A stretch of DNA of 64,000 bases from a virus (IMGVR_UViG_2654587772_000002), one strand, 5' to 3'. Numbered from the stretch's first letter, positions 1,024 to 30,135 are shown. Numbers and translations: made by a program. Notes: generated by a model from the letters alone, not told the origin.

Positions 1024-1034
1024 CCTGTTACGCC

Positions 1035-3316: not shown

Positions 3317-3317
3317 G

Positions 3318-3929
3318 TTAATTTCCTGCTTTCAGTTGCTTAAGACGGCGTTTGAGTTCGCCATTCCGTGCCTTTTCGTTATTGAGTCGGCCCGTCTCCT
3401 TATCCAACTTCGCCCGCAAATCTGTGATCTGCTGTTGATTGAAAGACACCGAATTCTGCGCGGACTTATAAGCGGCAACCACCTGAGCATTCCGCTGTTT
3501 TGCTTCTTGCAGGCGCTGAAAGTTGGATTTAACTGCCGGTTTCTTGTCTACCGGATTGGCAACACGCTTCGCTTTGGCGATCAGTGATTTCTGGAATTTC
3601 GCAGAGTTTTTGCGGGCCGCTTGCCCCATGACGGTACCAAGCGTCTTGATATCTGGCGACTGTGCGTTAGGAATAGATTTTCCATTCAGTTTCACAGCCG
3701 ATATATCACCAGTATCGTTTACCTGTATGGCAAGAATTTGTCCGTCGTTAAGAACCAGTTTTGCGGTTTTAACTTTAACGCCATCTTTCGTTGTTGCGCG
3801 GTTGCTGGAGTCAACCTCAATTACCGTAACACCGGTTTTATTGATCGCCGCGATAAGGGATTTCAGCCCCTTTTCATTAACCTGGTCAAAATCGACCGTT
3901 GCATACTTATTTTTCGTCATCTGACACAT
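3318..3929 (-). CDS. Hdf-like protein (203 aa), homologous over about 60 aa to part of the downstream 639-aa protein
   Basis: ORF track. Shared motif ..DGQ.L.I.....NSAKFQ followed by a basic coiled-coil tail in both proteins. Confidence 0.6.
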   Translation of the reverse strand: MCQMTKNKYATVDFDQVNEKGLKSLIAAINKTGVTVIEVDSSNRATTKDGVKVKTAKLVLNDGQILAIQVNDTGDISAVKLNGKSIPNAQSPDIKTLGTVMGQAARKNSAKFQKSLIAKAKRVANPVDKKPAVKSNFQRLQEAKQRNAQVVAAYKSAQNSVSFNQQQITDLRAKLDKETGRLNNEKARNGELKRRLKQLKAGN

Positions 3930-4350
3930 CCTGTGCGAGATTTATTACGTAACTTCTGCGGATTTGCTGAGTAACAGGGAAAATCCGATACAACGGGTTA
4001 ATGAACGAGTCGCCATGCGTAACCATGACGTTGAAATGCCACAGTCGCTCTCCTTTACCCATATATTCAGTGGGTATGTACAACCATTCACTGTTTTCGC
4101 CCTGTTCAGCCGACGTCAGACAACGTTGTTCGCCTTCAATCACTGTCGTCGGCTTCTGAACATCGCGGATCCAATATCTGACCGTTGCGCCGCGCAAAAA
4201 CGGGAATTTAGACCGGTATTTGAACGGCACCCGAATGAAACCCGGTTTAATTTCCACATCACCAAGTTCTAAATGCGTGATGTCCTTGCGTTTTAGCAAA
4301 TAGCGATCGGCTAAGGCTAACGCAAGAACGCATACACCCCAGCCAATCAT
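3907..4350 (-). CDS. Membrane-anchored protein (147 aa), putative LydB-like antiholin
   Basis: ORF track. Single N-terminal hydrophobic helix (IGWGVCVLALALA). Overlaps the upstream holin-like gene by 4 nt. Size matches recalled P1 LydB. Confidence 0.5.
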   Translation of the reverse strand: MIGWGVCVLALALADRYLLKRKDITHLELGDVEIKPGFIRVPFKYRSKFPFLRGATVRYWIRDVQKPTTVIEGEQRCLTSAEQGENSEWLYIPTEYMGKGERLWHFNVMVTHGDSFINPLYRIFPVTQQIRRSYVINLAQDVSDDEK

Positions 4351-4676
4351 TTCCCACCTCCCTTTTTCACCAAACTTGTAAGAACATTCAGAATGCTATC
4401 GATATTCACTCGTTTCATCCCTGAAATCACCTCATGACCGTTATTGCTGGCTATCGTTACCATTAAGTACGTAATTGATAACTCCCAGCCTTCGTGTTGC
4501 CCCAATAGGTACGCCACCGCGCCAGCTGTCACTGCAACAAAGATCTCCGTAACCAATCCCAACAAGTTGCCAGACTGGCGACCATCTCGGACATCCATCA
4601 GGAACGTGCCTATCCCACCAATTACTGAAAGCAGGAGCGCAATAGCAACTGGAGCTAATTCCTGTGTGTCAAGCAC
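4347..4676 (-). CDS. Small membrane protein with 2-3 TM helices (109 aa), holin-like (LydA-like)
   Basis: ORF track. Hydrophobic segments APVAIALLLSVIGGIGTFL, EIFVAVTAGAVAYLLG and ITYLMVTIA, with a charged C-terminal tail. Confidence 0.55.
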   Translation of the reverse strand: MLDTQELAPVAIALLLSVIGGIGTFLMDVRDGRQSGNLLGLVTEIFVAVTAGAVAYLLGQHEGWELSITYLMVTIASNNGHEVISGMKRVNIDSILNVLTSLVKKGGGK

Positions 4677-4778
4677 AAGTTCCCTCCTACGTTGTCAGGA
4701 GGTAATGGTATGCAAAGTAACTTCTCAACCGGTCATGTTACTTGACATCCTCCACGTCCTTTAGAGCGTGGAGGATGT

Positions 4779-5650
4779 GTGCGCCCAGCATGGGCGCGAT
4801 CTTGGAGGTGAAAGCCCTCCCGCGAGCTGACCACAGCGAGCGAAAGGAAGTGCAACTGCGTGAGGGCGGCTAGGCGTGGGGAGGAAGCACGGAATGAACC
4901 CGTGAGCCGATGAACAAGAATCGGATATGAGGCGCGATGGAGCAAGGCGAGCAGGCACATCACTGCGAAGCTTTCGTGACAAAGTCGCGTAGATCCGACG
5001 GTTGTGCGGGGAAGGATCGCGTTCTTACCTGGGGAGTTCTCGCCTCATGCCTGAAAGGGCAACGTCGTAAGACGGAGCGAGAAGTCAGCAGAGGCCGTAG
5101 TAGTCAGGACTCCGACGAAGGGCCGAACGAGAAGGAAAGCCAAAAGATATGACTCTTGACAGGACATTGCGTCAGAAGCCGGGGAAGCCCGGTACGGACC
5201 CGCATGCCGGGTGGTGTGGCAGGGGCGCAGCCTTGTGCTCCCCCCTATGCCGATCAAGCAGAACATTGTGCTGGGCCTCTGACGCATCTCCTTGATGGTC
5301 TTGGCATCGTGCTTAAGTGGATTGGTGTCGTCTCTGATAGGCTCATGGAGGCAGAATGAAACTCAAAAATCCGGGACAGCACGCAAAACAGGCTGCACAA
5401 AAAGCGCAGGTTGCGTAGGAGTGGAATCCCGCTCCCAAAAAATGGTGCAGAAGTTGCGGCAGTGGTCATCCGACGCACTGGAAAATAACAAACCCGCCGT
5501 GACCAGAATCGGAGGCCTGAGGGAGTGACCGTAAAACCGGATAACCCAGGCAGCAAATACCCGCTGGATGAGGCATGGTTCCGGCAGATAATACCGAAAA
5601 CCGCCAGACACACTGGATAATCAGTAGAAATAACCCATTAAAATCATTAT
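4779..5650 (+). mobile_element. GC-rich non-coding region with a group II intron-like 5' end (GUGCG plus first stem); possibly an ORF-less or degenerate intron; 3' boundary unknown
   Basis: GTGCGCCCAGCATGGGCGCG at about 4779 resembles the canonical group II 5' end and first domain I hairpin. An 8-bp hairpin (CCTCCACG...CGTGGAGG) lies just upstream. No long ORF on either strand and no reverse transcriptase. I could not identify a canonical domain V by eye. Confidence 0.3.
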
Positions 5651-5674
5651 AATAATTGGGCACATTATTATATT

Positions 5675-6238
5675 ATGCTGAATAATAGAGACATGAATAT
5701 TAATGAACTTAAAGACTGTATTCACTATGAAGTAATCGGTAGCGAGCGTCCTTTCTCCTGGCGAAAGGCAATTGTTCGCGCAATAAAACATAGAAGAGTT
5801 CGTTATTTATTTTGGTGGCGCATAGCCAAATACCTTTTTGATAAAGGCGGATACTGTCGGAAGATTGCGGGGAAAATGGAACGTTTCATTCTTGATAAAT
5901 ATAGTGTAACAGTCCCTTTAACTGTAAATATAGGGAAAGGCTTTGATATTTCTTATCTCAACGGTGTTGTTATCGGTCACAAAGTAACCATTGGTGAAAA
6001 TTGTTCAATAAAACCAGGGGTAACTATTGGGCTACGTGGTGATTTTAATGATATGGATATTGTTATAGGACATAATGTGACCATTGGTTGTAATGCCACC
6101 ATTCTTGGTGGCAAAGTGCGTATAGGAAACAATGTCACAATAGGTGCTCATGCATTGGTATTGCATGATATTCCTGATGATTCAACATTCATCACTAAAT
6201 TTCAGTCTGAAGTTATCTGCTCGTCCTCTTGCACATAA
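5675..6238 (+). CDS. Hexapeptide-repeat acetyltransferase, serine O-acetyltransferase (CysE)-like
   Basis: Tandem [LIV]-G-x-x-x-x hexapeptide repeats ([21 protein letters not shown]...[32 protein letters not shown]) after a CysE-like N-terminal helical segment. AT-rich, and on the opposite strand to the flanking phage genes. Confidence 0.8.
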
Positions 6239-6819
6239 CCCTGATTCATCAGCTCTGGCCATACGATATCCGGAGCTGTACTGGTGTCAATTCGACTCAC
6301 TAATACTCTGTATTTTCTCCAGGAATCCAGTTGTGAATTTTCCTCGGTTGTTGCTATTTCAAGATTAACTGCATCCTGCAGAATTGCGATGTTATCTGTT
6401 GCCTCCTGAATCAACCTTGCCTTTTTCTCTTCCGCTTCCCGTATCCGAAACAGTTTTTCTGCTTCCTCATCCTTCACCCAGGATACGCCGTCCCACTTCT
6501 GATACTCCCCTGCTGGCGACAACCAGGTGACATTCTCTGGTAACGGTCCGAGTTCAGAAATAAACAACGCGTCCCCCGATGCCACGTCATAGACCGTTTT
6601 ACCACGATGGTCTTCAACAATAATCCATGATTCATTTTCACTGTTAAAAACTGCCACAAAGCCAGCAGGAATTTCCGGTGGGGCGATATCTGTAGAATTA
6701 GCTGGTAGCCCTGTATGAGGTGGAATATATGCGTCACCTTCACCAATAAACTCATTAGTTCCGGCGAGCAGGTTATAAATTTTTACAGTACGTGATTGTT
6801 CACTCATTCTGAATGCCAT
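6202..6819 (-). CDS. tfa: Tail fibre assembly protein (Tfa/gpU family)
   Basis: N-terminus [54 protein letters not shown] is typical of the enterobacterial Tfa family. Sits immediately downstream of the tail fibre gene. Confidence 0.85.
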
Positions 6820-7709
6820 TATGCAAGCCTCACAATATAATTAAATGCGATGTTTTTAACGGTGTTTTCCGAGTTACCAGCAGCGTTAACGGTGATGGTG
6901 TGTCCATGTGAACCAATCGCAACAGAGTGCGTATGAGCGCCAATATCAACTGTATGTGCATGCGCCCCTGCACTTGCAGCGGTGCCTGATACTGAGTGGG
7001 TGTGTGCACCAGAAGAAGGCACAGTTCCATTCCCCACCACAGTGCCGCTTGATGAGCCATCAAGCCAGTCGAAATTCATACCGCCACCATCTGGTCTCCT
7101 TAATGGAACGGTATGAGTATGTGCGCCAGCACTATTTGCAGTACCAGATACATTGTGGGTATGTGCACCTGTGTTATTCGTTGATTTAGTACCGTAATCA
7201 AACGAAGATGTGGTTTTCGTACCCAAATCCGTATTGGATGCGCTGGCGCTGTGGGTGTGCGATTTAATGCCATCCTGTTCCAGAGACAATACGTCCCGAC
7301 CACTGGCGGGTTTGCCCTTGATTGTCCAGCCACGCATATCCGGGATCACGCCTGACGGATAAGCGGCTGCAAGTTTCGGGTATGCAGATTTGTCAAAAGT
7401 CTGTCCCTGCATCAGGGCGTAACCAGACGGCACAGTATCTGATGGCCACGGATGCGGAACACCAACAGGAAGGACCTCAATATCCCCGGAACCATCAAAC
7501 GAAACGTTATTAATTTTACGGGCTGTTTTCAGCTTTGTAGCCGTTGAGGCATTGCCGGACAGCTCACCAGAAATGCCACCAACAACTGTTAGATCACCAG
7601 TTATTGTGCCGCCTGAACTTTCCAGTTTTTTAGCAACATCACTCTTAATAGAGTCGATTTCTTTTTTCAGATTAGTTATATCTGCTGGTATCGTTGTCAC
7701 TGTTGCCAT
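6819..7709 (-). CDS. Tail fibre distal (receptor-binding) module with HxH/GAHTH repeats
   Basis: Carries the junction motif [26 protein letters not shown], then [32 protein letters not shown], repeated GAHTH(S/T)V motifs and the C-terminal [11 protein letters not shown] typical of side tail fibre tips. Confidence 0.8.
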
Positions 7710-7718
7710 ATTAATTCC

Positions 7719-7997
7719 TTACGCCCATTCCCGCAGCGGTTGTTCTAATTGAACTTCAAAACCATCAAACATTTGTTGTTTCAAACTGTTGTTTAAAATA
7801 CGAACATTAACGAAGAAGCCATCATTTTTAATCACTGTTGGTTCTTCGTTCTCGCCGTTTGGTATTTCGGTATATGTAACACCTACAACATCAAGAAGAA
7901 TGTTGTTTTGCAGCTCTTCATTATCGTGCCAGGATATACTCTCTAAAAAAGAGTCGTATTCTGCCCTGTCTCTGAATTTCAACGTGATATCTTTCAT
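7719..7997 (-). CDS. Hypothetical protein (92 aa) between the tail fibre genes
   Basis: ORF track only. Acidic, no motif recognised. Abuts the stop of the long fibre gene. Confidence 0.4.
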   Translation of the reverse strand: MKDITLKFRDRAEYDSFLESISWHDNEELQNNILLDVVGVTYTEIPNGENEEPTVIKNDGFFVNVRILNNSLKQQMFDGFEVQLEQPLREWA

Positions 7998-10897
7998 TAA
8001 ATAACCTCAGCCATTTGTTGGTCTGTTAATGCTTTATGCCATATTCTGAAATTTCTGATATGACCAAATAAATGACGTAACCCTGCTGTAGTCTGGCCTC
8101 CAATACGGATGGTTGCAGAGTTCTGAATATAGGACCATGTCGTCTTTGTTTCGCTGGATATGCGCCCGTTACTTACTGAGCACGTAGACTGATCTGATTT
8201 TACACGCATCCCCATAACCATTTTTTCAAGCAATGCGTTTTCGTTTACCCGTCTGTTAGCTCCTCCAATATCGCAATAAGGAAATCCGTCGTAATCTGCT
8301 GAAGAACCGAAGCCAAGAATAATAGCCGCTCCGGTTTGATGACCGCCGGTATCAAAAACACGTGGCGCTGCATTTGGCGTTTTATACCAGTTCTTATGTA
8401 CCTCACAAAGAACCGTAAAAGGAAGATTATAAAGATTATTATTAATTGGAACTGTAACTATATCGCTTGCGCGGGTAGCCGCCGTCGTTCCCGAGATAAT
8501 AAAAGATGATGCACACGAACCATCCTCAACCTGAGGGGTGGACAGATAAATATAGTCTCCAGATATGGTTGCTCCGCCCTGCTTAGGAGAATACTGTATC
8601 TGAGATCCTATTTTTAACTCATCATCAATTGCCTGGATTGTTGCCTCTGCAAAAATCCATCCGGTAGCTTCGTCCTTTCTGACTCTCGCTGTAATCCTTG
8701 AGGCCGCGCCACCTGTCATATTAATTTCAAGCGTTTGTGTATCAATATATGCATCACCAAGAAAAGTTGTTGCACTACCGTCATATTTATCAAAGCGGAT
8801 ACGTAACCTTACCTGTCGTTCTGTTTTAAAACGACATGAGGTTGTCACGTACTTGTTATCGCCTGAAACATCAACTGACTTTGTAGCAGCAATTGATGCC
8901 ATATTAATGGCTGACGTTTGCCCAATCAGAGAATCGTTACAGACAAACTTTCCATAGGTAAAACCAAAACTATCCGTCCCGGTTTCGGGAACATCCATAT
9001 TTGACGAGCGCCCCCAACTGGCAGGGTTTTCCGAATTGAGCATGTAGTTTGTTCGTTGTCCCTCAATAAGCAGACCATCACGTTCAAATCGTGGCTCGTC
9101 AATGGCAGCCTCTGTCAGCACACCAGATTTATTTATATAGGTTGCTTTCGATGCGCGTTTAAACTTAACAACCTTGTCGCCAGGCATTGTTATTTCGTCG
9201 TCGCCAATAACAATCTTTTTATATGATGGAGAAAAGCCCGCAATCATATCCAGCGAATCGTTAAACGGTATCCACACATCTGGCAGCGGTTGAATAATCT
9301 TCCTGGCATCCTCCAGTGACAATGCTTCGACATCCGAAGCTGTTAAAGAAATATCTGCCGAACCGTCAAATGAAACGTTGTTAATCATCCGTGCTGTTTT
9401 TAATTTCGTTGCGGTGTCGGCGTTCCCCATCAGTGCGCCGGTGATCCCGCCGTTGAAAGTCTGGCGTGCACTCCATGTGTTAGCCGTGCTCAACAGGGGG
9501 ATCTTTTCACCGCTTGTGCCGAGTTCTCTTAAACCAAGGTATTGGATAACAGCAAGGACGCTTGTTTTGGACAGAATATCGCGACCGACTGACGTTAAGT
9601 CAGTCTGAGAAACAGTGTCTGTACCGGTAAAGTACGGCAGTTTATTTGCGCCTGTAGCAAGACCAGCAAGCGCGGTTAAAGTTGCATCCAGAGGCTGTTT
9701 GCCTGCCAGCGCATTTGTCATTGTTGTCGCAAAGTTCGGGTCATTACCAAGTGCTGCGGCAAGCTCATTCAGGGTATCAAGAGCTTCTGGTGATGAACCA
9801 ACCAATGCGGATATGGCAGCTCTTACATAAGCAGTCGTAGCAATCTGCGTATTATTTGTGCCCTGCGCAGCCGTAGGCGCAGTAGGGACTCCCGTTAATG
9901 CAGGGCTTGCCAAAGGCGCTTTGAGGGCTAGGGCATTGTTGATAGTTGTGCTGAAATTCGGGTCGTTATTGATCGCAGCAGCTATTTCTTTAAGCGTATC
10001 CAGTGTGCCAGGTGCACCGTTGATAAGTGCCGTTATAGCTGACTTAACAAAGGCTGTATTTGCGATCTGCGTGCTATTTGTACCTTGCGCTGCCGTCGGC
10101 GCGGTTGGCGTTCCTGTCAGACTCGGGCTTTCTATTGGCGCTTTGGTATCAGCAAGACCTTTTACAGACTTAACGGCTTTAGGGGTAGCCGCCATTGTTT
10201 CGCTGTCGCTGTTAGTTTCGCTACTGAGCTGAACTAATCCCTTTTGCGTTGTGCTTGCATCCTGTGCCGTATACTTGCTTTTCGCCAGATCGTAGGCTTT
10301 TTTAGCTGCCAGCGAACTTGCAGCAACATCACTTCTGCTACTGGTTACAGAGTCTGAAATATCAATGCCGATCGTGCGGTTAATACGCTCGGATGTATCA
10401 ATCATCTCCTGGGTAATGGCTGATACGCCAGCAGGGATATTCACCGTACAAACAAGCAGCTCTCCATCTCCTAACTGATATGAATCGGTATAGGTTCTGG
10501 CAACAAATTCAGCCGCATGAATATGTGACGCGGTATTAACCTGATAGGTATCCTCTCCAAGGAGGTATCTTCCCTTCAGCACAATTGCATATTTCTTGCC
10601 TTCACTAAGTGCAAGAGAAATATCCTTACGGTGCCGAATAGTTACCTGGTAGAATTCACCAATATCCACTGACGCAGCGCCAGCAGTTTTATCACCATCC
10701 ACTGAGGTGATTAACAGGTTCATACCACCGCCAGGCTTCGGCAGGAAACCGGCATAAAACCCAGGATCAACAATTCCCCTGAATTTTCGGTTTAGCGCGG
10801 CTGACAGATATGGTTCGTGGTATTGCACATCAGCCACCAGAGCCAGTGACTCGGGCGATGGGTAAGTAACTGATGTAACAACTGTAACGTCATTCAT
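7997..10897 (-). CDS. Long tail fibre protein (Stf / gpS-like), about 966 aa from the internal Met
   Basis: Start set by codon arithmetic at Met30 (MNDVTVV...). Contains the TQKGLVQLSSETNSDSETMAATPKAVKSV fibre motif, collagen-like Ala/Thr/Pro repeats, and the junction motif [26 protein letters not shown] followed by its own C-terminal domain. Confidence 0.85.
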   Translation of the reverse strand: MNDVTVVTSVTYPSPESLALVADVQYHEPYLSAALNRKFRGIVDPGFYAGFLPKPGGGMNLLITSVDGDKTAGAASVDIGEFYQVTIRHRKDISLALSEGKKYAIVLKGRYLLGEDTYQVNTASHIHAAEFVARTYTDSYQLGDGELLVCTVNIPAGVSAITQEMIDTSERINRTIGIDISDSVTSSRSDVAASSLAAKKAYDLAKSKYTAQDASTTQKGLVQLSSETNSDSETMAATPKAVKSVKGLADTKAPIESPSLTGTPTAPTAAQGTNSTQIANTAFVKSAITALINGAPGTLDTLKEIAAAINNDPNFSTTINNALALKAPLASPALTGVPTAPTAAQGTNNTQIATTAYVRAAISALVGSSPEALDTLNELAAALGNDPNFATTMTNALAGKQPLDATLTALAGLATGANKLPYFTGTDTVSQTDLTSVGRDILSKTSVLAVIQYLGLRELGTSGEKIPLLSTANTWSARQTFNGGITGALMGNADTATKLKTARMINNVSFDGSADISLTASDVEALSLEDARKIIQPLPDVWIPFNDSLDMIAGFSPSYKKIVIGDDEITMPGDKVVKFKRASKATYINKSGVLTEAAIDEPRFERDGLLIEGQRTNYMLNSENPASWGRSSNMDVPETGTDSFGFTYGKFVCNDSLIGQTSAINMASIAATKSVDVSGDNKYVTTSCRFKTERQVRLRIRFDKYDGSATTFLGDAYIDTQTLEINMTGGAASRITARVRKDEATGWIFAEATIQAIDDELKIGSQIQYSPKQGGATISGDYIYLSTPQVEDGSCASSFIISGTTAATRASDIVTVPINNNLYNLPFTVLCEVHKNWYKTPNAAPRVFDTGGHQTGAAIILGFGSSADYDGFPYCDIGGANRRVNENALLEKMVMGMRVKSDQSTCSVSNGRISSETKTTWSYIQNSATIRIGGQTTAGLRHLFGHIRNFRIWHKALTDQQMAEVI

Positions 10898-10908
10898 CAA
10901 GCATATCC

Positions 10909-11343
10909 TTATGCTATAGTCGTGTTGATGGCCATAACTGCGGTATATGTTTTTCCCACATACAGCGAGTCTTCCTGAACACAAATAATTGCGATGGGCT
11001 TATTCTCGTTATCCAGAACAACCAGAGTGTTGAATGGATAGTTTTTCCCTTCCTGCAACTGGCTTTGATCAAGGTCCATTCGGACAGTAATTATCCCGCC
11101 AGAGTAGGTTGGGACGAGGTTGATGGTGCAAAATTGACTGGTCAGTTCTGCCAACTCGAAAGTCTTTGGCAGTTCTCCAATGTCATAAGTACCATCTTCA
11201 TTTTTGGTAACCAGCGAACTGGTGCCGAAAACGGCCTTGCTGATTAAAAATCGAGAGCCTTTGTTAATGGACGATTCAGCGCGTCGCTGATAGTAATAAT
11301 CCAACAACTGACTCTTATAGAGATTTGTTGAGACGTCAGACAT
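10909..11343 (-). CDS. Tail fibre/baseplate-associated protein (144 aa), gpR-like by position
   Basis: ORF track. Immediately upstream of the long fibre gene. Confidence 0.55.
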   Translation of the reverse strand: MSDVSTNLYKSQLLDYYYQRRAESSINKGSRFLISKAVFGTSSLVTKNEDGTYDIGELPKTFELAELTSQFCTINLVPTYSGGIITVRMDLDQSQLQEGKNYPFNTLVVLDNENKPIAIICVQEDSLYVGKTYTAVMAINTTIA

Positions 11344-11421
11344 GATTTTCCCTAATCAATGTTGTGAAGCCTCATTGTAAGAGAAGTAACTTGTCACCCC
11401 GCCCTGCGGACGGGGTAATTG

Positions 11422-12261
11422 TCAGGCATCGCTATCCAGCAGCAAATCATCTGCGCGGGAGCGATCAAACGTAGGCGTTGCTTTCACAATAGTGCCGCCC
11501 GGCGTTGCAGTGATCGGGGCACTAATCGACGTAACTCCGGCAAGCGAAGTTGTATCCGAAGTTTCAAACCAGCAGTACGCTTTTTCGGTATCAGAAATCT
11601 CGTTCAAAGTGATCATGTCGGCCTGTTCATTTACAACAACCGACAAATAGAGCGTAAGCCCATCAAACACTATATGCAGTGGCAGTAGAGGCTTTACGAA
11701 CTGATTAAACTTTCTGAGAATTTCTTCTGTAATTGCGGACTGATCTATCGTGCCAGTAATACCCATTGTCCTGGCCAGGTCGTTTATGGGAATACTGATC
11801 ATCCCTCTGGAAGTCAGAAACATCTCGCCGAATGTGCCGCCAGTAGTCTCCAGTGTGCTTTCTGGTATTAGAACTGTGCCATAGGGATGACGCTCAAGGT
11901 CCACCGGTGCATATATCGGATCCCATAAAACAGAAATACCGTTAAATTCGCGGTAAATTGTCTGGTTTATAGGACGTTCAGTTCCCTTAAAGTGGATCTC
12001 ATCAAGCCGCTGTTGTAACAACATCGGAACGGAAGATGAGTTCGAGGTTCTGATAGTAAAGAACTGGCCAAGTTCATTTGTCCTGGTCTCCAGATCCTCC
12101 TTGCTCATGGAGAAAATAGACTTCCGGTTGGTAATTCGCTCCAACCATGGGTCAACAAAGGTGTCCATCATTGACTGAACCAAATCAGCCAATGATTTAT
12201 AGAGCAATGACTTTTGCTTAGCTGATGTAAGCCGGTTATTAAACCAGGAACGCTGCATCAC
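11422..12261 (-). CDS. Baseplate/tail protein (279 aa)
   Basis: ORF track. Overlaps the upstream gene by 4 nt. Position between the baseplate-like 477-aa gene and the fibre genes. Confidence 0.55.
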   Translation of the reverse strand: MMQRSWFNNRLTSAKQKSLLYKSLADLVQSMMDTFVDPWLERITNRKSIFSMSKEDLETRTNELGQFFTIRTSNSSSVPMLLQQRLDEIHFKGTERPINQTIYREFNGISVLWDPIYAPVDLERHPYGTVLIPESTLETTGGTFGEMFLTSRGMISIPINDLARTMGITGTIDQSAITEEILRKFNQFVKPLLPLHIVFDGLTLYLSVVVNEQADMITLNEISDTEKAYCWFETSDTTSLAGVTSISAPITATPGGTIVKATPTFDRSRADDLLLDSDA

Positions 12262-13691
12262 TCCTCCTCATACGAAATATTAAAGGTGGAGCTTTCTGTA
12301 TCCAGATAAACGAAATCGTAAAAGCCGTTGGACTCATTCCACTCGACAAATTCCAGATAAAAGTCGCGGAAATAACCCAGCGTTTCGATAAACGCCCAAA
12401 CGTCTTTTTTCTTAATCAGGATGTACTTTCCGACGCGGTTCGGATCAAAGAAAGTTGAGTCGCGCCCAAATTTTGTTTCCAGTGCCGACTTCAGCTCATC
12501 GGTCACATTCTCAATGGTCAGGCTTGCCGATATCCGTCCGGTGATGGTTATCTTAAATGGTAGTTTTCTGACCTCTTTATAAGAGAATTTCTTGTTCAGT
12601 TCATTCGGTACCTTCTTAAAGGCAGTCAGGATCATTTCTTCAAGCTCTGACTGGCTTTTATTTGGATGCCATCCTGAAATAAATATCTTATTGATATTCT
12701 GAACATTATAAGCACCATCTAATTTCTCTTGCTGGCCTTCGCCCCATGCCTTTACCCAGGACAGCCCCGGGATGTTACGAACCAGAAAATACGTATAGTC
12801 CCCGCCCCATACGACCTGATCATCATAGGCAAGGTAATATTGTGCACGGTTACGTGTGATCTCCGTTGTTTCAGCATCGGTACCTGCGGTTATAGGTGTC
12901 GTTGTCTTAACTGAAATCAAATTAGCTAAATCAGCCGCAGAATCGACAGGCGTCAGGTTTTGGCCAGCAACCAGGGTTATATCGCCGTTGGTGCACCATA
13001 CCTTAAGCGTAATTGTCGAACCTTCTGGCGGTATTTGCCCAATTAGCCCATCGCCGAATCGAACCCCCAACTGCTCGGATGGTTTATAAAACTCAACGTA
13101 GACCTGGCTTTTACTACCGGCTAACCGGAACATAGTGCTGGAAGACCACTGCGTGGTCTTCCCATCGGTTGTCACGAATACTTCCAGCTTATAGCAGACA
13201 GCAGTAAGAGCCTTTGATAACACGACTTCCAGAAATTCTTTGGCTGCCGTAACGGTATATGTCACCTCCTGGATTTCCAACTGTGCCACTTCTACCGTAC
13301 CGGTGCCGTCAACCAACCTGCATACATCCATAGTCATGTAAGGGTACTGGTCGTCAGATATTAAAGGCATGTTTTTGGGGATTACCGCTGGGGCATCTTC
13401 ACTTGTGGCGGTGATCTCAATCATCCCCGATGACGGTGTTGGCTTGGTACCAACATAACTGTTCGTTTCTGCCGCAGCCAGGATAGAGGAACGCCGCGTC
13501 GCGGTCGATATAAAGCCTTCAGCCAGCGCCGCATCGGCATACTGAAAGCACCTGTAGACAATCTGGGTAATAAACAATGTCAGCATCGAGACAAATTGAG
13601 AGCCGACAAACTTCGACCAGAATGAATCTTTCTCGACAAGCTCTTCAAACTCTGCACGAATACTGTCTTTAGTCGGTGTTGTTTTACTCAT
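12258..13691 (-). CDS. Putative baseplate J-like structural protein (477 aa)
   Basis: ORF track. Size and position in the tail module. Assignment by context, not motif. Confidence 0.55.
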   Translation of the reverse strand: MSKTTPTKDSIRAEFEELVEKDSFWSKFVGSQFVSMLTLFITQIVYRCFQYADAALAEGFISTATRRSSILAAAETNSYVGTKPTPSSGMIEITATSEDAPAVIPKNMPLISDDQYPYMTMDVCRLVDGTGTVEVAQLEIQEVTYTVTAAKEFLEVVLSKALTAVCYKLEVFVTTDGKTTQWSSSTMFRLAGSKSQVYVEFYKPSEQLGVRFGDGLIGQIPPEGSTITLKVWCTNGDITLVAGQNLTPVDSAADLANLISVKTTTPITAGTDAETTEITRNRAQYYLAYDDQVVWGGDYTYFLVRNIPGLSWVKAWGEGQQEKLDGAYNVQNINKIFISGWHPNKSQSELEEMILTAFKKVPNELNKKFSYKEVRKLPFKITITGRISASLTIENVTDELKSALETKFGRDSTFFDPNRVGKYILIKKKDVWAFIETLGYFRDFYLEFVEWNESNGFYDFVYLDTESSTFNISYEEE

Positions 13692-14047
13692 AGCACCACG
13701 TCCTGTGTGATAGTTATATCCCTGATACGAATGGATATTTTCAACTTATCAAAAGCATCTCCCTCGGCTACTGACAAGCCAGAAATCGGTATGTCAGGTA
13801 AATCTACCGTCAGTTTTTGCAACAGCATTGCCTCAACCGCAATTTGAACATGCGACAAGTTGGTCGGTTCGTGTTTAAACTGCGGTAAAACATTGCCCCA
13901 TGACGGATCTCCGTATACCTCACCCTGATAAGTGTTTAGCCACTCATATAAACGAGCGCCCCAGGCCTCCTCCTGGGACTCATACGTTTTTACGCCGGAT
14001 AACTCCAGCGTCAGCAAAGGATCAATTTCGTTATTGTTGGCCATCAA
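13688..14047 (-). CDS. Small tail/baseplate protein (119 aa)
   Basis: ORF track. 4-nt overlaps on both sides indicate operon coupling. Confidence 0.55.
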   Translation of the reverse strand: MMANNNEIDPLLTLELSGVKTYESQEEAWGARLYEWLNTYQGEVYGDPSWGNVLPQFKHEPTNLSHVQIAVEAMLLQKLTVDLPDIPISGLSVAEGDAFDKLKISIRIRDITITQDVVL

Positions 14048-17000
14048 TCAACTCTCGCGTAGTCATTCATCAACGGATCATCAATTGACAGTGGCACCGT
14101 GCGCATAACGCCCGGTTGAGGCGTGCTGACCTTTACGACAGTTCCCTGGCCTTTCGCCGAGTCTTTAGTGTGCTCTTCAATCCTGGCAAGCAATGAGGTC
14201 ATCTGCGCAAACAGCCGCTTCGTTTCACCATCAAGTGAAACGGTATTATCAGCCAACTGCATTGTCGGCTTGGCACCAGAGCCGCCAAGGTCACTAATAA
14301 CCTGTCCGTCTATCTGCATACGACCGGTTGGTTGCTGCAAATCGTTGGCGGCAGTCGTCACCTGGGACGTGGAGGCTGGTTGAGGAGAGTTATTTGAGCG
14401 CATTCCCCGGGCATTAATGAGTTTGTCATACAGCCCATCAATCCCCATTTGTGCACCGAGTTGGTCAAAGTAACTTGAGTTGTTTGCTACCGGACGTGCC
14501 TCTTCAACTGGCATAGGTGTATCAACATACACATTGCCAGCAGCCGTTGCGGTTCCCCTTCCTCGTGCACGTTCTTCGAGGGTTCCCTGAACGACTTCCC
14601 GACGCATCCCCCGACCATTCATGAATTTGTTGACCAGATCGTTAACGCCAACAGCATTACCGATTTTGTCTACCAAACCGCCTTTCTCAAACGGGCTATC
14701 ACCAGGGGTAAACGCCAGACCAGTAGACTGATCGATAACGGCGTTATCAGGCAGTGGTCCCCTCACTCCATATTGCGCCCCACCCTGTGCTCCTGCTCCA
14801 GGTGTATAGATTTCACCACCTAAATAGCGAGCACGATGAGTATTGACCTTGATCGCGTACTCACGGTTTTCTTTCGATAAGTCACCTGTGCCTTTTTTCC
14901 ACTTATTGATAGTGCCAAACCCAGCATTATATGCAGTGATGGCCTCGTTTAAGTCTCCATTGGCTTGCTTCAGATACTTGCTCATGAGAAGAGCCGCAGC
15001 TTCTGCCGATTTCACAGGATCAAATGCATCCTGTTCCGATATCCCTGTCTCTTTACGAGCAATACTCGTGAACTGGAACATCCCGAGTGCGCCACCACTT
15101 AACTTTCCATCTGGTGATCTTGTAAGCGGAGACTTTGCGTTAGGATCCCCTCCTGATTCAGTTGCCGCAATCGAGTAAAGAGTGCCTTCAGGAAGGCCAT
15201 ATTTATTCTCTAGTTCAGCAAAATACGGAGCCAGCTTATCCAGATTTGCCTTACCTTCAGCGCCAAGGCTTCCGACTTTTACATCTAAGTTGCCATTGTT
15301 GTAGGTATCCGCAGCTTTCTGAATGTCATTCCTAGTGCCAGTAGTATTAAGCGACGATGATGATGAGCTATTTTGACCAATAGCATTATCAATTTTCTGC
15401 AACGCTCGATTGCCCGTTTCTACGGCATTTGCATTGATAATCTGATTGGCAGTTTCTTTAACTGTTTTATTGCTATCTTTCGCCGTCTCTAGGGATGCAT
15501 TTACAACACGAGTGACAATATTAGCCTTTTTAGGGGTATATTCAGTCTTAGGAGCATTGTCCTCCTGACTTTCTTTAGCTGGTGTTTTTAATTCAGGTGT
15601 AACCTCTTTCGCATCCGCTTTGTTGACTAGCTTTGATGCAACCCAGGCCACAGGGGTGCTCTGAACAGCGGCATCGGCAACCTTACCAGGAAGCTCTTTT
15701 GCGGCATTCCATAGATTACTACCAGCCTCTTTAATGTATTTTCCCGGGTTCTTAATGAAATCAATTGCACTATCAATTGCATCACTGAAAACCTTTTTCA
15801 GGTTATCGACAGTAAAGAAGTCTTTGATGGCGTCTAATTTTTCGTTCAGACTCTTGGTTGTGTCACTGAACCAGGCTGAAATAGCATCGCCAATCTTGGC
15901 TGTGTAATCGTTGAATGTTGTGGATATGGTGTCACCAAGGTTAGAAATATATGTTTCTAAATTGGTAATCCCACTATCAATGGCCTGGGCAATACTTTCC
16001 GTCGAAAATGATTGCAACATATTGCCGATATCCTCAAATCCAAGTGATTTGAGAACGCCACCAATGGCATTGCTAATACCAGATACCAGTCCTCCCATAT
16101 CGAGAACGTTAGCCAGTGTATAAGCCGCTTTTTGCTGAAAAGATGGATCTTCCCCATCCTTAAGCCCAAAGGTCCGACGTTGTGCTTCTGTATCATTCCA
16201 ACCGGTTACCGCATCATAGATACCTCCAGCCACCGTGCCGACTAGCGGAATTGCGCGTAAAGCCCCCTTTGCAAAAGCCTTAACACCTAGTTTCTCCAAT
16301 CCCTTAGTTGCAAGTTTTCCGGCACCGCGAGTAGCCAATTCGCCAGCTTCTTTGGCAGCAGCTTTTTTCCCACCAAAGCCCAATAAGCTTGCAACTTTTT
16401 TTATACCTAAAGCGCCTAGTGCCATCGAGCCAACTTTCTTTAGTGCCCCACGGCAAAAAATAAGGGAAGCAATACCACCGGCCCCCTTCCCTAACAGGCT
16501 AAATAATTTGGACAGCAAGCCGCCCTTCTTTTTCCCGGTGTTTTTGGCTATCTGATCAAGGGCGCTGAGAATCTTGTCATTGCCCTCTTTAATTTCGCTG
16601 GTCTGATCCTGAAGTTCCTGAACCGTCCGTTTTTGGGTGTTAACCTGAACGACATCGGCACTACTTTGCGATTTACGCCTAAAAAAACCTTTTCTACGGC
16701 TGTTATCGTCATTGCCACGAATCACATCGGCAATTGACTTTCTGGCACCATTAAGCGAACCGCCAACTTCTTTTGATATTCCGCCAAGCTCCTTTCCTGC
16801 TGCCCACAATGGACCAGCAACGGCATAACCTAAAGCATCGACGGCACGAGTCTCTGAAGGGTTACCTATGCCTTCAGCTACTTTTGACAGTTTTTTTAAT
16901 AAACCCGATTCAGCATTTAGACGCTCATCATCCTCTTTGCGCCTAGCTTTTTCAGCACGTTCAGCACGGGCATCTTCCGCTGCGGCCTTACTCCCTGACT

Positions 17001-17472
17001 TCCCAATAAAACGACCACGCGCATCGCGTTGGTTTTGGCTTTTTTGCGCACCGCCTTTTTGACCGAACATTTCGCGAGCGTGTTCGGCTGCTTCGGTCCG
17101 TTGTGCCTTTACATCCTCTGGTATAGCCTTCCTGCGTCGTTTTTTACCCTTTGGTGTGGTTGATTTGGCCCGCTGTTCCTGTTGAGCAACATCTTCCTGA
17201 ACTACACGAGAAACGTCCCCTAAGTTAAGCCGTTTCATTGCCTCAACAATAGGGTCCACTGATGGCGCATTGGCCACAAAGTCTGGCCGTGAATTTTCGA
17301 TTGTGCGATTTAATGCCGACACACTGCGAGAGACAGGATCAACAGTTGCAACGCGCCCCCCTTTCAAATCTTCAACAGCTTCCCGGATACCTGCAAGCTC
17401 TTCCAGCTCTTTTGCGCTGGCGGTTTCAACTGTCCTTATAACATCGTCAATGTTGGCGTTTTTTCGTTCCAT
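14044..17472 (-). CDS. Tape measure-like protein with a lytic transglycosylase (SLT) domain (1142 aa)
   Basis: N-terminal half has Gly/Ala/Lys-rich repeats and hydrophobic segments typical of tape measure proteins. C-terminal half has an SLT-like block (ESGGDPNAKS...GALGMFQFT...AYNAG). Confidence 0.85.
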   Translation of the reverse strand: MERKNANIDDVIRTVETASAKELEELAGIREAVEDLKGGRVATVDPVSRSVSALNRTIENSRPDFVANAPSVDPIVEAMKRLNLGDVSRVVQEDVAQQEQRAKSTTPKGKKRRRKAIPEDVKAQRTEAAEHAREMFGQKGGAQKSQNQRDARGRFIGKSGSKAAAEDARAERAEKARRKEDDERLNAESGLLKKLSKVAEGIGNPSETRAVDALGYAVAGPLWAAGKELGGISKEVGGSLNGARKSIADVIRGNDDNSRRKGFFRRKSQSSADVVQVNTQKRTVQELQDQTSEIKEGNDKILSALDQIAKNTGKKKGGLLSKLFSLLGKGAGGIASLIFCRGALKKVGSMALGALGIKKVASLLGFGGKKAAAKEAGELATRGAGKLATKGLEKLGVKAFAKGALRAIPLVGTVAGGIYDAVTGWNDTEAQRRTFGLKDGEDPSFQQKAAYTLANVLDMGGLVSGISNAIGGVLKSLGFEDIGNMLQSFSTESIAQAIDSGITNLETYISNLGDTISTTFNDYTAKIGDAISAWFSDTTKSLNEKLDAIKDFFTVDNLKKVFSDAIDSAIDFIKNPGKYIKEAGSNLWNAAKELPGKVADAAVQSTPVAWVASKLVNKADAKEVTPELKTPAKESQEDNAPKTEYTPKKANIVTRVVNASLETAKDSNKTVKETANQIINANAVETGNRALQKIDNAIGQNSSSSSSLNTTGTRNDIQKAADTYNNGNLDVKVGSLGAEGKANLDKLAPYFAELENKYGLPEGTLYSIAATESGGDPNAKSPLTRSPDGKLSGGALGMFQFTSIARKETGISEQDAFDPVKSAEAAALLMSKYLKQANGDLNEAITAYNAGFGTINKWKKGTGDLSKENREYAIKVNTHRARYLGGEIYTPGAGAQGGAQYGVRGPLPDNAVIDQSTGLAFTPGDSPFEKGGLVDKIGNAVGVNDLVNKFMNGRGMRREVVQGTLEERARGRGTATAAGNVYVDTPMPVEEARPVANNSSYFDQLGAQMGIDGLYDKLINARGMRSNNSPQPASTSQVTTAANDLQQPTGRMQIDGQVISDLGGSGAKPTMQLADNTVSLDGETKRLFAQMTSLLARIEEHTKDSAKGQGTVVKVSTPQPGVMRTVPLSIDDPLMNDYARVD

Positions 17473-17553
17473 GATCTTATCGCCTACCGTTTCGGTTTAA
17501 GTTTTTCTTCCAGTTTCTCCAACAGGAAAAACGCATAGGATTCAGTAAGCCTT

Positions 17554-18435
17554 TCAGCGTCCTGAATCGGTATACCCCCATACAAAACCAGGTTGGACAC
17601 TAAGGTCTGATAGCTTTTCAATCCCCACCTGTGGAATGAAGTCGGTAGCCCGAAAGGGCACCCACAGACGGGTATATGCACCCTCTGTGGACTCCTTTTT
17701 ATCCTGATTTGGGCATTTATGCGGCGGGAGACGAAGACGCATTTCACCTTTATCGATGTAGCACGGCAAACCATGTTCGAGCTTTTCATGAGCCAGTCGG
17801 ATGTGTGCCGCCAGCTTCATAAATTCAGTATCAATGGCCATCCGTTTAATCGTTTCATAACGACGCTCAGCCTGATCTTCACGAGTACCGCTAACATCGT
17901 TATAAAGCTCACACTGATAAGCGAATTCCCAAAAACGCAAATCAACGATCGCTTCTTTGAATTCCGCGTCGTCTTCAGGTGGCAATGCTGCACGGCGCAT
18001 CTCCAGCATTTCCATTGCCCAACCATCAAGCGGCACGATACGCCATTGATAAGGCACTCCCTCTACAGACACCTCAATATCGTCAATGAACGGTTCCGCT
18101 TCCAGGACCTGGATATCTTCAGCCAGGGCATTCATATCGCAATCGTAATAATGCTCTTTACCGCAATGTTTACAGGTGTAGGTGAATGTCTCGACCGGTG
18201 TTTCACGGGAGCCGGTAAATATCCACCATAACGCGGTAATCCGGTCCTGCGCCGTCCATGTCAGGGGATCATGTTTCGCGGGTTCAGCCAGCAAGGCTTT
18301 TAAATACGCCGTTGTCTGTTGTTCTTGTTCCTCCGGTGTTATCGAGTTGAAACGCATCGCATCAGCAATATTTGGCTGACGGAACTGGATCAATTCAGTT
18401 GGCCGCGATGGTAGCGGGAAAAGAGGTAAAAGCAT
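17554..18435 (-). CDS. Tail-associated protein (293 aa) with a Cys4 zinc-ribbon; possible tail assembly chaperone
   Basis: CKHCGK...C.....C motif. Position immediately upstream of the tape measure gene. Confidence 0.5.
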   Translation of the reverse strand: MLLPLFPLPSRPTELIQFRQPNIADAMRFNSITPEEQEQQTTAYLKALLAEPAKHDPLTWTAQDRITALWWIFTGSRETPVETFTYTCKHCGKEHYYDCDMNALAEDIQVLEAEPFIDDIEVSVEGVPYQWRIVPLDGWAMEMLEMRRAALPPEDDAEFKEAIVDLRFWEFAYQCELYNDVSGTREDQAERRYETIKRMAIDTEFMKLAAHIRLAHEKLEHGLPCYIDKGEMRLRLPPHKCPNQDKKESTEGAYTRLWVPFRATDFIPQVGIEKLSDLSVQPGFVWGYTDSGR

Positions 18436-18449
18436 CCTTGCTCCTTAAT

Positions 18450-19061
18450 TCAAAGAGAAAAGCTAAAGCCCAGAAGGGAAGCCAAAGAACTTGAGGATTG
18501 GTTAAACGTGCTGTGCAATGCGAAGGTCATTGGGAATGACTTAAATTCCGTAACCTGATCCCGCGCATAGGTGACATCTCCGGTAGTGACCGGGAATACC
18601 GTCATCTCATTTTCCAGTTTGGTTAAACCGGAGGACAGCAACCGATAAATACGCACATTGAGCAAATATTTAGATGGTATGTTCCCGGTGCCGTCAGGAT
18701 TGATCACCCGACTTTTTGCCGTCTTAAACCAGTCCAAAACGAGGCCATCAACGGTATCCCTGACCATCATTGTTATCTGCCCTGGCGAACGCTCCGTTGG
18801 CTGAAGGATATTCCCTCCGCCGATTTTAATCGTTTCATATTCGATGCTGTAATCGTGGTAGGTAATGTCTTTAGCAAAGAAGTCTGCCCCCTCCAGACCA
18901 TCAACTTCGACAGAGAACTGCCATCCTTGCGCGAACAGCATTTTGTTCATGATGATTGACGTCAGCTTACCAACTTCCCGTTCACCAACGCCGGAGCCAA
19001 ATAATGTCGTCGTTAATGCCGAAGATACATAAGACTTTACTGAAGCAACATTAAGCCCCAT
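18450..19061 (-). CDS. Putative tail tube protein (203 aa)
   Basis: ORF track. Position upstream of the chaperone/tape measure pair. Assignment by context. Confidence 0.5.
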   Translation of the reverse strand: MGLNVASVKSYVSSALTTTLFGSGVGEREVGKLTSIIMNKMLFAQGWQFSVEVDGLEGADFFAKDITYHDYSIEYETIKIGGGNILQPTERSPGQITMMVRDTVDGLVLDWFKTAKSRVINPDGTGNIPSKYLLNVRIYRLLSSGLTKLENEMTVFPVTTGDVTYARDQVTEFKSFPMTFALHSTFNQSSSSLASLLGFSFSL

Positions 19062-19071
19062 ATCAGCCCCC

Positions 19072-19662
<591 letters not shown>

Positions 19663-19996
19663 TTAACCGATTCTACGAGTAGTCATTTGTTCATCGTGTA
19701 ACAATATTGCCATTGGATAAAATAACTACAGCGCCCACAAACGGGCGCATTCTGTACATGACTTGAGATATATTATGTTGCATTAAAGCTTTTCAAATGA
19801 TAATCAGCCAAGCCTTTCGCAATTATCGGCATAGTATTTTGTTGCATTTACTATTATTGACTCATAATACGATTTGCATTCTTTCTTCCATGGAGTGCAC
19901 GAATTTATTTTTTCCATATCGTTTTTATTTTTAGAAATACCAACAAGCATAATGTACCCGATAAATCTTGTTGTCAACGCGCCAATCGGTAGCGTT

Positions 19997-20284
19997 CTAT
20001 TCTCGGCTACTGTCTTTTATTAAATTATCTTTATATTGAGGAATGAAATAGTTACCAACATATTCCAGATTTGCTTCAATAGGATTAAGATAGAATGAGC
20101 AATACTGAAAAGTGGGAATTTGTCTAAATTTAACACCAGAACATAATGAATAAATTTCTTGTTCTTTTGTTAGTTCTTTTACTATGTGACTGTTGTCAGT
20201 CGTATCTTCTAATCTTATATAGTTCAAAGACGATTTTGCTTGTCCTGGGCTTACAAGCTCAATAACAGGATGCCCATTAGACAA
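19997..20284 (-). CDS. Hypothetical protein (95 aa) in an AT-rich insert
   Basis: ORF track. Very AT-rich compared with flanking phage genes. Confidence 0.4.
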   Translation of the reverse strand: MSNGHPVIELVSPGQAKSSLNYIRLEDTTDNSHIVKELTKEQEIYSLCSGVKFRQIPTFQYCSFYLNPIEANLEYVGNYFIPQYKDNLIKDSSRE

Positions 20285-20334
20285 TGTTATTCTTTCGATC
20301 TTACCCCGAATTCTAGAAGTTTGACTCCATTCAT

Positions 20335-20568
20335 CTAGGCTGCTATTTCATTTTTCTTGAATGAATCAACAATATCTGATGGCAAGCTAAAAACAGTAGC
20401 TTTCGTATTCATAGTATATGCAAGCGAAGCAGATACCATATAGTTTCTGACTAAATTATAGTCCTTCTCGGAAACAGAATACTCATTAGGAATAGCTATT
20501 GAATTTGCAAATGAATAGCTGCTAACAAAAGCAAACGGCAACAATAGTTTAAACATTAATTTTTTCAC
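20335..20568 (-). CDS. Small secreted protein (77 aa) in an AT-rich insert
   Basis: N-terminal signal peptide MKKLMFKLLLPFAFVSSYSFA. AT-rich. Confidence 0.45.
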   Translation of the reverse strand: MKKLMFKLLLPFAFVSSYSFANSIAIPNEYSVSEKDYNLVRNYMVSASLAYTMNTKATVFSLPSDIVDSFKKNEIAA

Positions 20569-20597
20569 TTATCACTATCCTTCGAATATCTTTACAT

Positions 20598-20783
20598 TTA
20601 AAGCCCGTCTTTGCAGAGACTAGTTGCTGTAGCGGTAAGTTGTGAAACAGGAATGTTAGGGCTGTCCCGTTTCTGAAGATACCCGGCGCTTAGTGTGGAC
20701 TGATGCTCTGCTGCGCTCGCTGGCGTACCAGCGGCAACCAGCCAGACTACTGCGGACAGAATAACAGCACATAATTTACGCAT
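20598..20783 (-). pseudogene. lom: lom remnant: only the signal peptide and first beta-strand (about 35 codons) of the Lom outer-membrane protein, then unrelated sequence
   Basis: MRKLCAVILSAVVWLVAAGTPASAAEHQSTLSAGYL matches the Lom N-terminus as I recall it. The ORF stops at 61 codons, whereas intact Lom is about 200 aa. Directly downstream of J, as in lambda. Confidence 0.6.
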
Positions 20784-20850
20784 AATTACCTCTCGCTTTT
20801 CTGCAATAAAAAAGGCGTCATTTCTGACGCCCGTATTGGGGTTATAAAAT

Positions 20851-24329: not shown

Positions 24330-24389
24330 TCCTCACGCTCCATAAATGACAAAACCGCCCGCAGGCGGTTTCACATAAAACATTTTGCA

Positions 24390-25702: not shown

Positions 25703-25707
25703 GGGAT

Positions 25708-29970: not shown

Positions 29971-30135
29971 TTATTAAAACTCCTGACAACAAAAAACCCA
30001 CCGCGAAGTGGGTTTCAGGCGACATAATAGTAGATATAGCGATTACGAGGCCACGCAATGCTTTTCTCCAGGAGCATCATCGATTTAATTAAAGACACCA
30101 TCACATCTCTGTAACAGAGTGTACGTAATTAACAA

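Follow-up and report, generated by a model that had tools for sequence, protein, structure and literature searches.

A P1-like late-gene block adjoining a Rac-type prophage in a 64,000-nucleotide viral sequence

Does a single lambdoid prophage carry two tails? This question is raised by IMGVR_UViG_2654587772_000002, a viral sequence of 64,000 nucleotides (nt) that is referred to here as the window. An earlier reading made from the sequence alone (the sequence-only reading) had flagged positions 6202–20600 as a second tail, baseplate, and fiber module, with its own tape measure gene, appended to a lambda-type tail. We find that this "second tail module" is simply the usual set of late genes carried by a P1-like (Punavirus) phage-plasmid, and that its gene content and functions are already known biology. 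The block has no connection with the lambda-type tail beside it, whose genes are part of another element, a full-length Rac-type prophage at ttcA. The adjacency of the two is probably a product of genome assembly, and not a hybrid virus.

Identity of the flagged gene block

Collinearity with P1 spans window positions 1–20673, in the order ddrB-ddrA-darA-hdf-lydB-lydA, a U-like Tfa, S, R, 16, bplA, pmgA, sit, pmgB, tub, and pmgC. The limits of 6202–20600 given for the module were therefore too narrow, as P1-collinear sequence extends through the dar operon to window position 1. Megablast of positions 6202–20800 against a phage collection yielded matches of 95–96% nucleotide identity over ~10.3 kb to P1, P7, SJ46, RCS47, phi456, and others, the P1 counterpart being positions 36337–46647 of AF234172/NC_005856. 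All sizeable open reading frames (ORFs) in window 1–36000 lie on the minus strand. Descending from position 19638, they encode proteins of 188, 203, 293, 1142, 119, 477, 279, 144, ~966, 92, 296, and 205 amino acids (aa). The annotated P1 map reads ddrB, ddrA, darA, hdf, lydB, lydA, [lydC, cin, C segment], S, R, 16, bplA, pmgA, sit, pmgB, tub, pmgC, LPsit, simCBA, c4, icd, ant, and ORF order and sizes in the window are equal to it or differ by ≤2 aa. Most window proteins are 96–100% identical to those of P1, with the exception of Sit (89.8%), and the PHROG families matched were PmgC-like, tail tube, PmgB-like, phrog_2533 (the Sit family), baseplate protein, and the P1 gp16 and R families.

Much of the sequence-only reading was borne out by these comparisons. 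The ORFs that it listed are present on the minus strand where it had placed them, including those of 119, 477, 279, and 144 aa at 10909–14047. Its proposal of a foreign tail, baseplate, and fiber set is upheld by P1 gene order and ~95% DNA identity, and the loose likeness that it saw to the P1 tail-fiber region proved to be identity, since gene order, DNA sequence, and late promoters are all those of P1. The checks that it proposed, a protein comparison with P1 and a plot of guanine-plus-cytosine (GC) content, returned P1 homologues at 90–100% identity and a GC dip at 19–21 kb.

The 1142-aa protein that prompted the question is, by its sequence, Sit, the P1 tape measure with an SLT domain. Its gene (14044–17472, minus strand) encodes a product 89.8% identical end to end to P1 Sit (tape measure/structural injection transglycosylase), matching phrog_2533 and carrying a Pfam SLT domain at aa 750–869 (E = 3e-25). 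It is a long protein with an SLT domain, encoded between pmgB and pmgA/bplA, as a tape measure should be, and its earlier placement in the tape measure class with a transglycosylase domain was correct. Functional assignments were taken from a P1 virion proteome and knockout study (PMC9024508), which argued that Sit, and not gp6, is the P1 tape measure and supplies SLT activity, and which found Sit in virions.

The genes on either side of sit, all on the minus strand, were assigned in the same way. Upstream lie pmgC (19072–19638; 98.9% identity to P1 PmgC), a tail adaptor or head-tail joining gene (PMC9024508); tub (18450–19061; 99.5% identity to P1 Tub), encoding the tail tube; and pmgB (17554–18435; 98.6% identity to P1 PmgB), which is essential and likely encodes the tape-measure chaperone (PMC9024508). 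Downstream lie pmgA (13688–14044; 100% identity to P1 PmgA), encoding a T4 gp25-like baseplate protein essential in P1 (PMC9024508); bplA (12258–13691; 99.4% identity to P1 BplA), encoding the 477-aa T4 gp6-like baseplate wedge, with Pfam domains Gp6-like_1st and Baseplate_J; gene 16 (11422–12258; 98.6% identity to P1 gp16), encoding a baseplate structure protein; and R (10909–11343; 96.5% identity to P1 R), whose product is a baseplate wedge or fiber-associated protein (PMC9024508). The same study identified S as the tail fiber. These assignments leave almost no room for a non-phage contractile or injection system (a tailocin, PLTS, or type VI secretion system-like apparatus), or for the 1142-aa protein as a non-tail cell-wall enzyme. 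All that speaks for such a system is that one protein has an SLT domain and that the window contains no gene for a sheath, and the encoded proteins are 90–100% identical to P1 virion proteins detected by mass spectrometry (PMC9024508).

Three candidate Lpa-dependent late promoters, each with a −22 box plus a −10, were predicted on the minus strand at the positions expected from P1. These are LPdar at 4705–4723 (19/19 against the annotated P1 LPdar), LPs at 11374–11392 (18/19 against P1 LPs), and LPsit at 19670–19688 (19/19 against P1 LPsit), upstream of lydA, R, and pmgC, respectively. Judging by these motifs, the block would be transcribed from P1 Lpa-dependent late promoters. Tube and adaptor, the tape measure with its chaperone, and the baseplate wedge would come from the LPsit operon (pmgC, tub, pmgB, sit, pmgA, bplA, 16), and the fibers from the LPs operon (R, S, the 92-aa ORF, another fiber protein, and Tfa), beyond which lies the LPdar operon.

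The rest of a P1 genome was found outside the window, contiguous with the same block, in CP007393 (Escherichia coli sequence type [ST] 2747). This record is 99.9–100% identical to the window over positions 1–7928, 9516–18309, and 20673–39799, and we infer that the window derives from a sister assembly of it. CP007393 shows the same P1-like element beside the same Rac-type prophage. Its element is essentially complete (about 92–95 kb) and carries darB, prt/pro, lyz, ssb, c1, pacAB, lpa, phd/doc, a type I restriction-modification system, dmt, ban, tRNAs, repA, and parAB, as well as structural genes for capsid, sheath (phrog_1036, E = 9e-231), a BplB-type tube, and hub. The products of the block would thus join those of sheath, hub, capsid, and further genes, located at other places on this ~95-kb element, in forming a P1-type contractile tail. 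No sheath gene was found within the window, which had been taken as an anomaly; it is normal, because P1 keeps gene 22 (sheath) in another operon, as it does 21, bplB, pmgG, 23, and the hub genes, and CP007393 has the sheath gene elsewhere in the element. Taken together, the collinear pmgC-to-S order with the dar operon beyond the fibers, the high identity to P1 and P7 structural genes, the predicted late promoters, and the remaining P1 genes in CP007393 place the block in Punavirus.

On this evidence, it is very improbable that the window holds one mosaic lambdoid prophage in which an additional tail module, with an additional tape measure, is carried or used. Both blocks are co-directional and adjacent in the window, as such a mosaic would have them. 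Against it, the flagged block continues into P1 darA, hdf, and lydAB, and the whole P1 genome follows in CP007393, where the P1 part has its own replication, partition, immunity, packaging, capsid, and sheath genes. The P1 Lpa-dependent late promoters are retained, so the block does not appear to be wired into a lambdoid late transcript; the genes neither lie inside one phage genome nor share its regulation, and lom is truncated without homology. Baseplate genes of the contractile type that come with no sheath would not be expected to work with a siphovirus tail. One prophage with two tails was accordingly not what we found, as the block runs on into a P1 genome with P1 promoters. The alternative offered by the sequence-only reading, two adjacent prophage remnants, was right as to two prophages and wrong as to remnants, since CP007393 holds a full-length Rac-type prophage and an essentially complete P1-like genome.

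Variant fiber cassette and sim-locus cargo

Differences from P1 proper are concentrated in two places, the first being the fiber region. P1 homology ends at 4736 and picks up again in the constant part of S. P1's lydC, cin, and invertible C segment (Sv', U', U) are absent from the window; tblastn found no cin, lydC, or U' there, and no inverted repeats were present in 4600–11000, such as Cin and an invertible C segment (Sv'/U') would entail. In place of the C segment, the window has a distal S half, a 92-aa ORF, a 296-aa second fiber protein, and a different Tfa, all encoded on the minus strand. S (7997–10897) is a 966-aa tail fiber with a P1 constant N-terminal half (aa 1–518, 95.6% identical to P1 S) and a non-P1 distal half. 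The long fiber gene had been read as 7997–10984, from an upstream TTG; the gene stands, and its start is moved to the ATG at 10897. It is followed by the 92-aa ORF between the two fiber genes (7719–7997; phrog_1361, E = 2e-35), the second fiber gene (6819–7709), whose product has a tail collar domain and fiber repeats (Pfam Collar, E = 2e-11, and Phage_fiber), and the gene for a U-like tail fiber assembly protein, Tfa (6202–6819; Pfam Caudo_TAP, E = 2e-39), of which the C-terminal part is only 46% identical to P1 U.

The lack of cin and the C segment does not disqualify the element as P1-like, because many P1-like plasmids have the same fiber-region variant, with a serine acetyltransferase beside tfa. 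The cassette matches sequenced P1-like phages from window ~7185 onward and P1-like plasmids from 6202 onward, and from this presence in phages and plasmids it is, by sequence match, a known variant. The last 447 aa of S (window 7997–9340) are 91% identical to the C-terminus of the Rac-type Stf in the same genome, and the 92-aa ORF is 47% identical to a 93-aa ORF after Rac stf in CP007393, from which the plasmid phage and the chromosomal prophage appear to share a receptor-binding cassette.

Two further features were seen in this region. The acetyltransferase gene, of the hexapeptide-repeat type (5675–6238, plus strand), is convergent with tfa (6202–6819, minus strand), with a 37-nt overlap. 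Under the annotation "serine acetyltransferase," it travels with this fiber cassette in many P1-like plasmids, and as cargo it may serve to modify a receptor or the O antigen. At 4860–5123 on the plus strand, between lydA/LPdar and this gene, lies the 5' fragment of a group II intron (Rfam RF02001 D1-D4-3, 95.5 bits; RF01998 D1-D4-1, 46.8 bits). The intron fragment and the acetyltransferase gene occupy the place of lydC and cin in P1. As a permissive scan of 4600–6400 gave no match to domain V/VI and no reverse-transcriptase ORF was apparent, the intron looks truncated.

Beyond the fibers lies the dar operon, again on the minus strand. It comprises the holin gene lydA (4347–4676; 100% identity to P1 LydA), lydB (3907–4350; 98.6% identity to P1 LydB), hdf (3318–3929; 98.0% identity to P1 Hdf), darA (1397–3316; defense against restriction, internal head protein; 98.4% identity to P1 DarA over 639/639 aa), ddrA (1035–1400; 97% identity to P1 DdrA), and the 5' part of ddrB (1–1022; the N-terminal 323 aa of a gene that runs past the window start; 98.5% identity by tblastn with P1 DdrB).

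The second place of difference lies upstream of pmgC, where simABC of P1 is replaced by a divergent simC homologue and a 212-aa ORF. GC content is 0.39–0.43 at 19–21 kb, against ~0.58–0.61 in the J region, and this AT-rich stretch had been read as an insert at the junction. From its sequence context, it is instead assigned as cargo at the P1 sim locus and part of the P1-like element, because it is contiguous with pmgC in two free plasmids, NZ_CP027575 (2013C-4081 unnamed2, 95,952 bp) and NZ_CP195366 (p24AR0070B), which match window 18200–20673 in one piece at 98%. A cargo segment common to P1-like plasmids and the ST2747 chromosome record was noted by Venturini et al. 2019 (PMC6906374). The simC homologue (19783–20568, minus strand; 98% DNA identity to NZ_CP027575 and NZ_CP195366) is a distant relative of P1 SimC (30–45% identity) that is intact at 261 aa in P1-like plasmids and broken by indels in the window. 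Five window-specific indel events lie in or near it (19750, 19797–98, 19821, 20015, and 20336), and none in the pmgB-tub-pmgC stretch. They reflect either a superinfection-immunity gene that is truly decaying or a consensus of poor local quality close to a contig end.

Elsewhere in CP007393, the P1-like element has a second, diverged icd-ant module next to c1, with ant frameshifted, and an Ail/Lom-family gene of its own near repL/rlf. These show earlier uptake of lambdoid-type cargo.

P1-like sequence in the window ends with the last 24 codons and stop of the 212-aa signal-peptide ORF of P1-like plasmids (20598–20673, minus strand). Three-way alignments place a blunt junction with ~1 nt of microhomology at 20673/20674, beyond which are the first 110 nt (36 codons) of a Rac-type lom (20674–20783, minus strand), identical to lom in CP007393. 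The 61-codon ORF at 20598–20783 is therefore an in-frame fusion, and its earlier description as a lom stub was accurate for codons 1–36; the last 24 codons are the 3' end of the 212-aa ORF. At the place taken by lom in the window, NZ_CP027575 and NZ_CP195366 continue from pmgC and its cargo into the 212-aa ORF and the icd-ant immunity region; in NZ_CP027575, the c4 region there was checked as well. Alignment of the partners revealed no homology at the breakpoint beyond the ~1 nt. We considered homologous recombination via a plasmid-borne lom and rejected it, as the 212-aa ORF is not Lom-like (no Pfam match) and breakpoint homology is lacking.

The junction with the Rac-type prophage

Comparison with related genomes thus set the breakpoint within the 19.6–20.8 kb range predicted by the sequence-only reading. 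Its further claim of mosaic recombination at lom holds in that the junction lies inside lom; the junction itself may not be biological. In CP007393, the layout is Rac...J-lom, the P1-like element (~92 kb), then a 5'-truncated second 'J-lom-stf-tfa-pinR adjoining ydfK-uspF-ompN. At its left junction, a complete lom plus 429 nt of stf is joined to pmgB codon ~41, and this 1,024-bp piece (complete lom plus 429 nt of stf) stands in place of window 18310–20672. At its right junction, the P1 c4 promoter region, right after the −10 box, is joined to J nt ~232, the microhomology amounting to ~1 nt; two mismatches fall within the initial 17 nt of the J part. CP007393 also lacks window 7929–9515 (distal S, including the Rac-Stf-like segment). 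A blunt joint within S bridges the gap, as if a break induced by the repeat had been mended by abutting the ends. The J-lom' at the window junction is identical to the right J-lom copy of CP007393, and homopolymer errors differ between the two sequences.

We consider it likely that the P1-like/Rac adjacency arose during genome assembly. On this account, the P1-like element would be a free plasmid whose contig was placed inside a single "gapless chromosome" when ~14 PacBio scaffolds were ordered, and the identical J-lom on both sides of the element would be an untrimmed overlap of two neighboring chromosomal contigs. The ST2747 genomes were sequenced with PacBio C2 chemistry at ~28x and gave ~14 scaffolds per strain (Xavier et al. 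2014, PMC3983296). That study gives six accessions for six strains, from which no plasmid records were deposited, and a ~95-kb plasmid contig would consequently have had only the chromosome record to go into. The three isogenic ST2747 chromosomes that it reports measure 5,054,424, 4,998,910, and 5,090,326 bp, differing by up to 91 kb (PMC3983296). The documented scaffold-abutment method favors the assembly account.

So does the disagreement of the two records exactly at the join, which falls between lom nt 110 and the 212-aa ORF tail in the window and between lom-stf nt 429 and pmgB codon ~41 in CP007393. Each partner is cut at a different point in the two assemblies, and one arrangement is not derivable from the other by a single event. 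Measured against both other copies, the chromosomal stretch before the CP007393 join shows an indel cluster and further indels at 490 and 50 nt from its end, a pattern typical of a low-coverage contig end. Two candidate signs of assembly failure were dismissed. An indel cluster at window 20973–21137 is no contig-end sign in the window, where the sequence agrees with the right copy of CP007393, as the errors lie in the CP007393 left copy. A repeat-induced break at c4/icd through the element's second icd-ant module was also set aside, the two copies being visibly diverged when compared by eye.

Neither junction was found outside these records. No spanning sequence was present among 5,426 complete E. 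coli genomes, 72,556 PLSDB plasmids, GTDB representatives, IMG/VR, and JGI metagenomes; the scans comprised an exact-junction search of GTDB representative genomes, IMG/VR, and JGI metagenomes and a junction-centered BLAST against PLSDB. Exact-protein look-ups with the Lom fusion, the split J, S, and Sit returned CP007393 and no further assembly. Long P1-like matches are nearly all on ~90–100-kb plasmids, and three chromosome records with such matches were seen among the 5,426 complete genomes (ST2747, EC16, and PK8241). The prior for a chromosomal P1 is low on these figures, which counts against real integration.

Such integration is nonetheless the chief rival, a credible one that we think unlikely. 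It holds that a P1-like phage-plasmid captured a 3.4-kb Rac piece, from J nt ~232 to lom nt 110, replacing ~750 bp between the 212-aa ORF and the c4 promoter, and then underwent Campbell-type integration at the chromosomal J-lom. The product would be Rac...J-lom'/P1 (~92 kb)/'J-lom-stf-tfa-pinR, flanked by 3.4-kb direct repeats across which excision as a plasmid would be possible, and the gene block would still be P1's own tail genes. Several observations favor a real join and weigh against assembly as the cause. Two separately sequenced isogenic strains share the chromosomal site and orientation of the element and the opening of the P1 circle in the same ~3-kb stretch (pmgB to the c4 promoter); if the placement is an assembly product, this sharing would need an extra reason, for example, the use of one finished genome as a template for others. 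The window is clean up to the join, being free of indels for 330 nt on the P1 side and for 1.5 kb on the lom side. Furthermore, the window left junction and the CP007393 right junction together fit a coherent Campbell-type structure, delimiting exactly a 3.4-kb repeat whose two copies are identical. Lambdoid cargo uptake by P1-like plasmids occurs, and the same element has its separate Ail/Lom-family gene. Rare chromosomal integration of P1 is known from classical integrative-suppression work.

Long P1-like stretches with repA and parAB are present in two other chromosome records, EC16 (NZ_CM169485, 5.10–5.15 Mb) and PK8241 (NZ_CP080139, 4.93–4.98 Mb). These add to the case for chromosomal P1 in general; as evidence on this junction they were discarded, since the sim-c4 locus is intact in both and they are uninformative.

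The real join has difficulties of its own. It requires two illegitimate joins and a crossover, and it is contradicted by the CP007393 left junction, which would itself have to be an assembly error. The identical 3.4-kb J-lom repeat is obtained by combining two assemblies whose left junctions disagree, and a well-covered internal junction would hardly be expected to show two mismatches within 17 nt of the start of the right 'J copy. Neither junction recurs in any other public sequence searched, the assembly method lends scaffold joins no support, and a free plasmid carrying the repeat gives the same assembly graph. If the CP007393 right junction is real, c4, icd, and ant would be without their native promoters. 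A fuller version, in which a natural phage-plasmid/lambdoid co-integrate has lost its c4/icd/ant immunity promoters and alternates between integrated and plasmid states, possibly after nitrofurantoin-linked DNA damage, seems to us doubtful.

Genes and functions are unchanged whichever account of the adjacency is true. What had looked like two tails and two tape measures in one lambdoid phage is a P1 late region of the textbook kind beside a Rac-type prophage, so a false hybrid-tail claim is avoided, and the ST2747 records are flagged as unreliable around prophage repeats. Were the join true, it would document a natural instance of a P1-like phage-plasmid inserted in a lambdoid prophage, which would hold modest interest for the study of phage-plasmids and of the entry of plasmid prophages into chromosomes.

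The Rac-type neighbor and comparison with known systems

The Rac-type prophage contains intR, xisR, ralR, recET, kilR, sieB, racR, ydaSTUV, trkG, terminase, a P22-type capsid, and a lambda-type tail through J, and it is complete from intR to pinR in CP007393. J, at the end of the tail operon (20851–24329, minus strand), has an apparent frameshift at 22234, where a C4-versus-C5 homopolymer splits it into ORFs at 22164–24329 (721 aa) and 20851–22239 (462 aa). Both CP007393 J copies read C5, the left one being annotated as intact and the right one lacking the first ~230 nt; because both have C5, the split is probably a sequencing (PacBio consensus) error and not a pseudogene. The lambda-like tail described earlier as complete is therefore so as an operon through J, with J itself interrupted in the window. 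Within this prophage, a low-GC island lies at ~43000–53000 (GC 0.32–0.44). Its CP007393 counterpart has genes annotated as DNA cytosine methyltransferase, O-methyltransferase, and ATP-binding protein, and the island may serve in defense or hold cargo. A match to the STnc100 small RNA was also seen at 46852–47038 on the minus strand.

Compared with Rac of E. coli K-12, the neighbor shares the intR-to-trkG set and the right end, stf-tfa-pinR adjoining ydfK-uspF-ompN, whereas the neighbor is a full-length element that has terminase, P22-type capsid, and the entire lambda-type tail. For the P1-like block, the nearest comparison is P1 itself (NC_005856, 24.5–46.6 kb), which has the same gene content, order, orientation, and sizes from ddrB to pmgC and the SLT domain at the same place in Sit. 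Among P1-like plasmids, NZ_LR890336 and NZ_JBLWKF010000003 match 81% of window 6202–20800 at 97% identity, and phages phi456, vB_EcoM-Ro157c2YLVW, and JL22, along with P1-like plasmids, have the same variant fiber cassette and/or sim-locus cargo. The P1-like relatives of the block are free ~95-kb plasmids or virion genomes.

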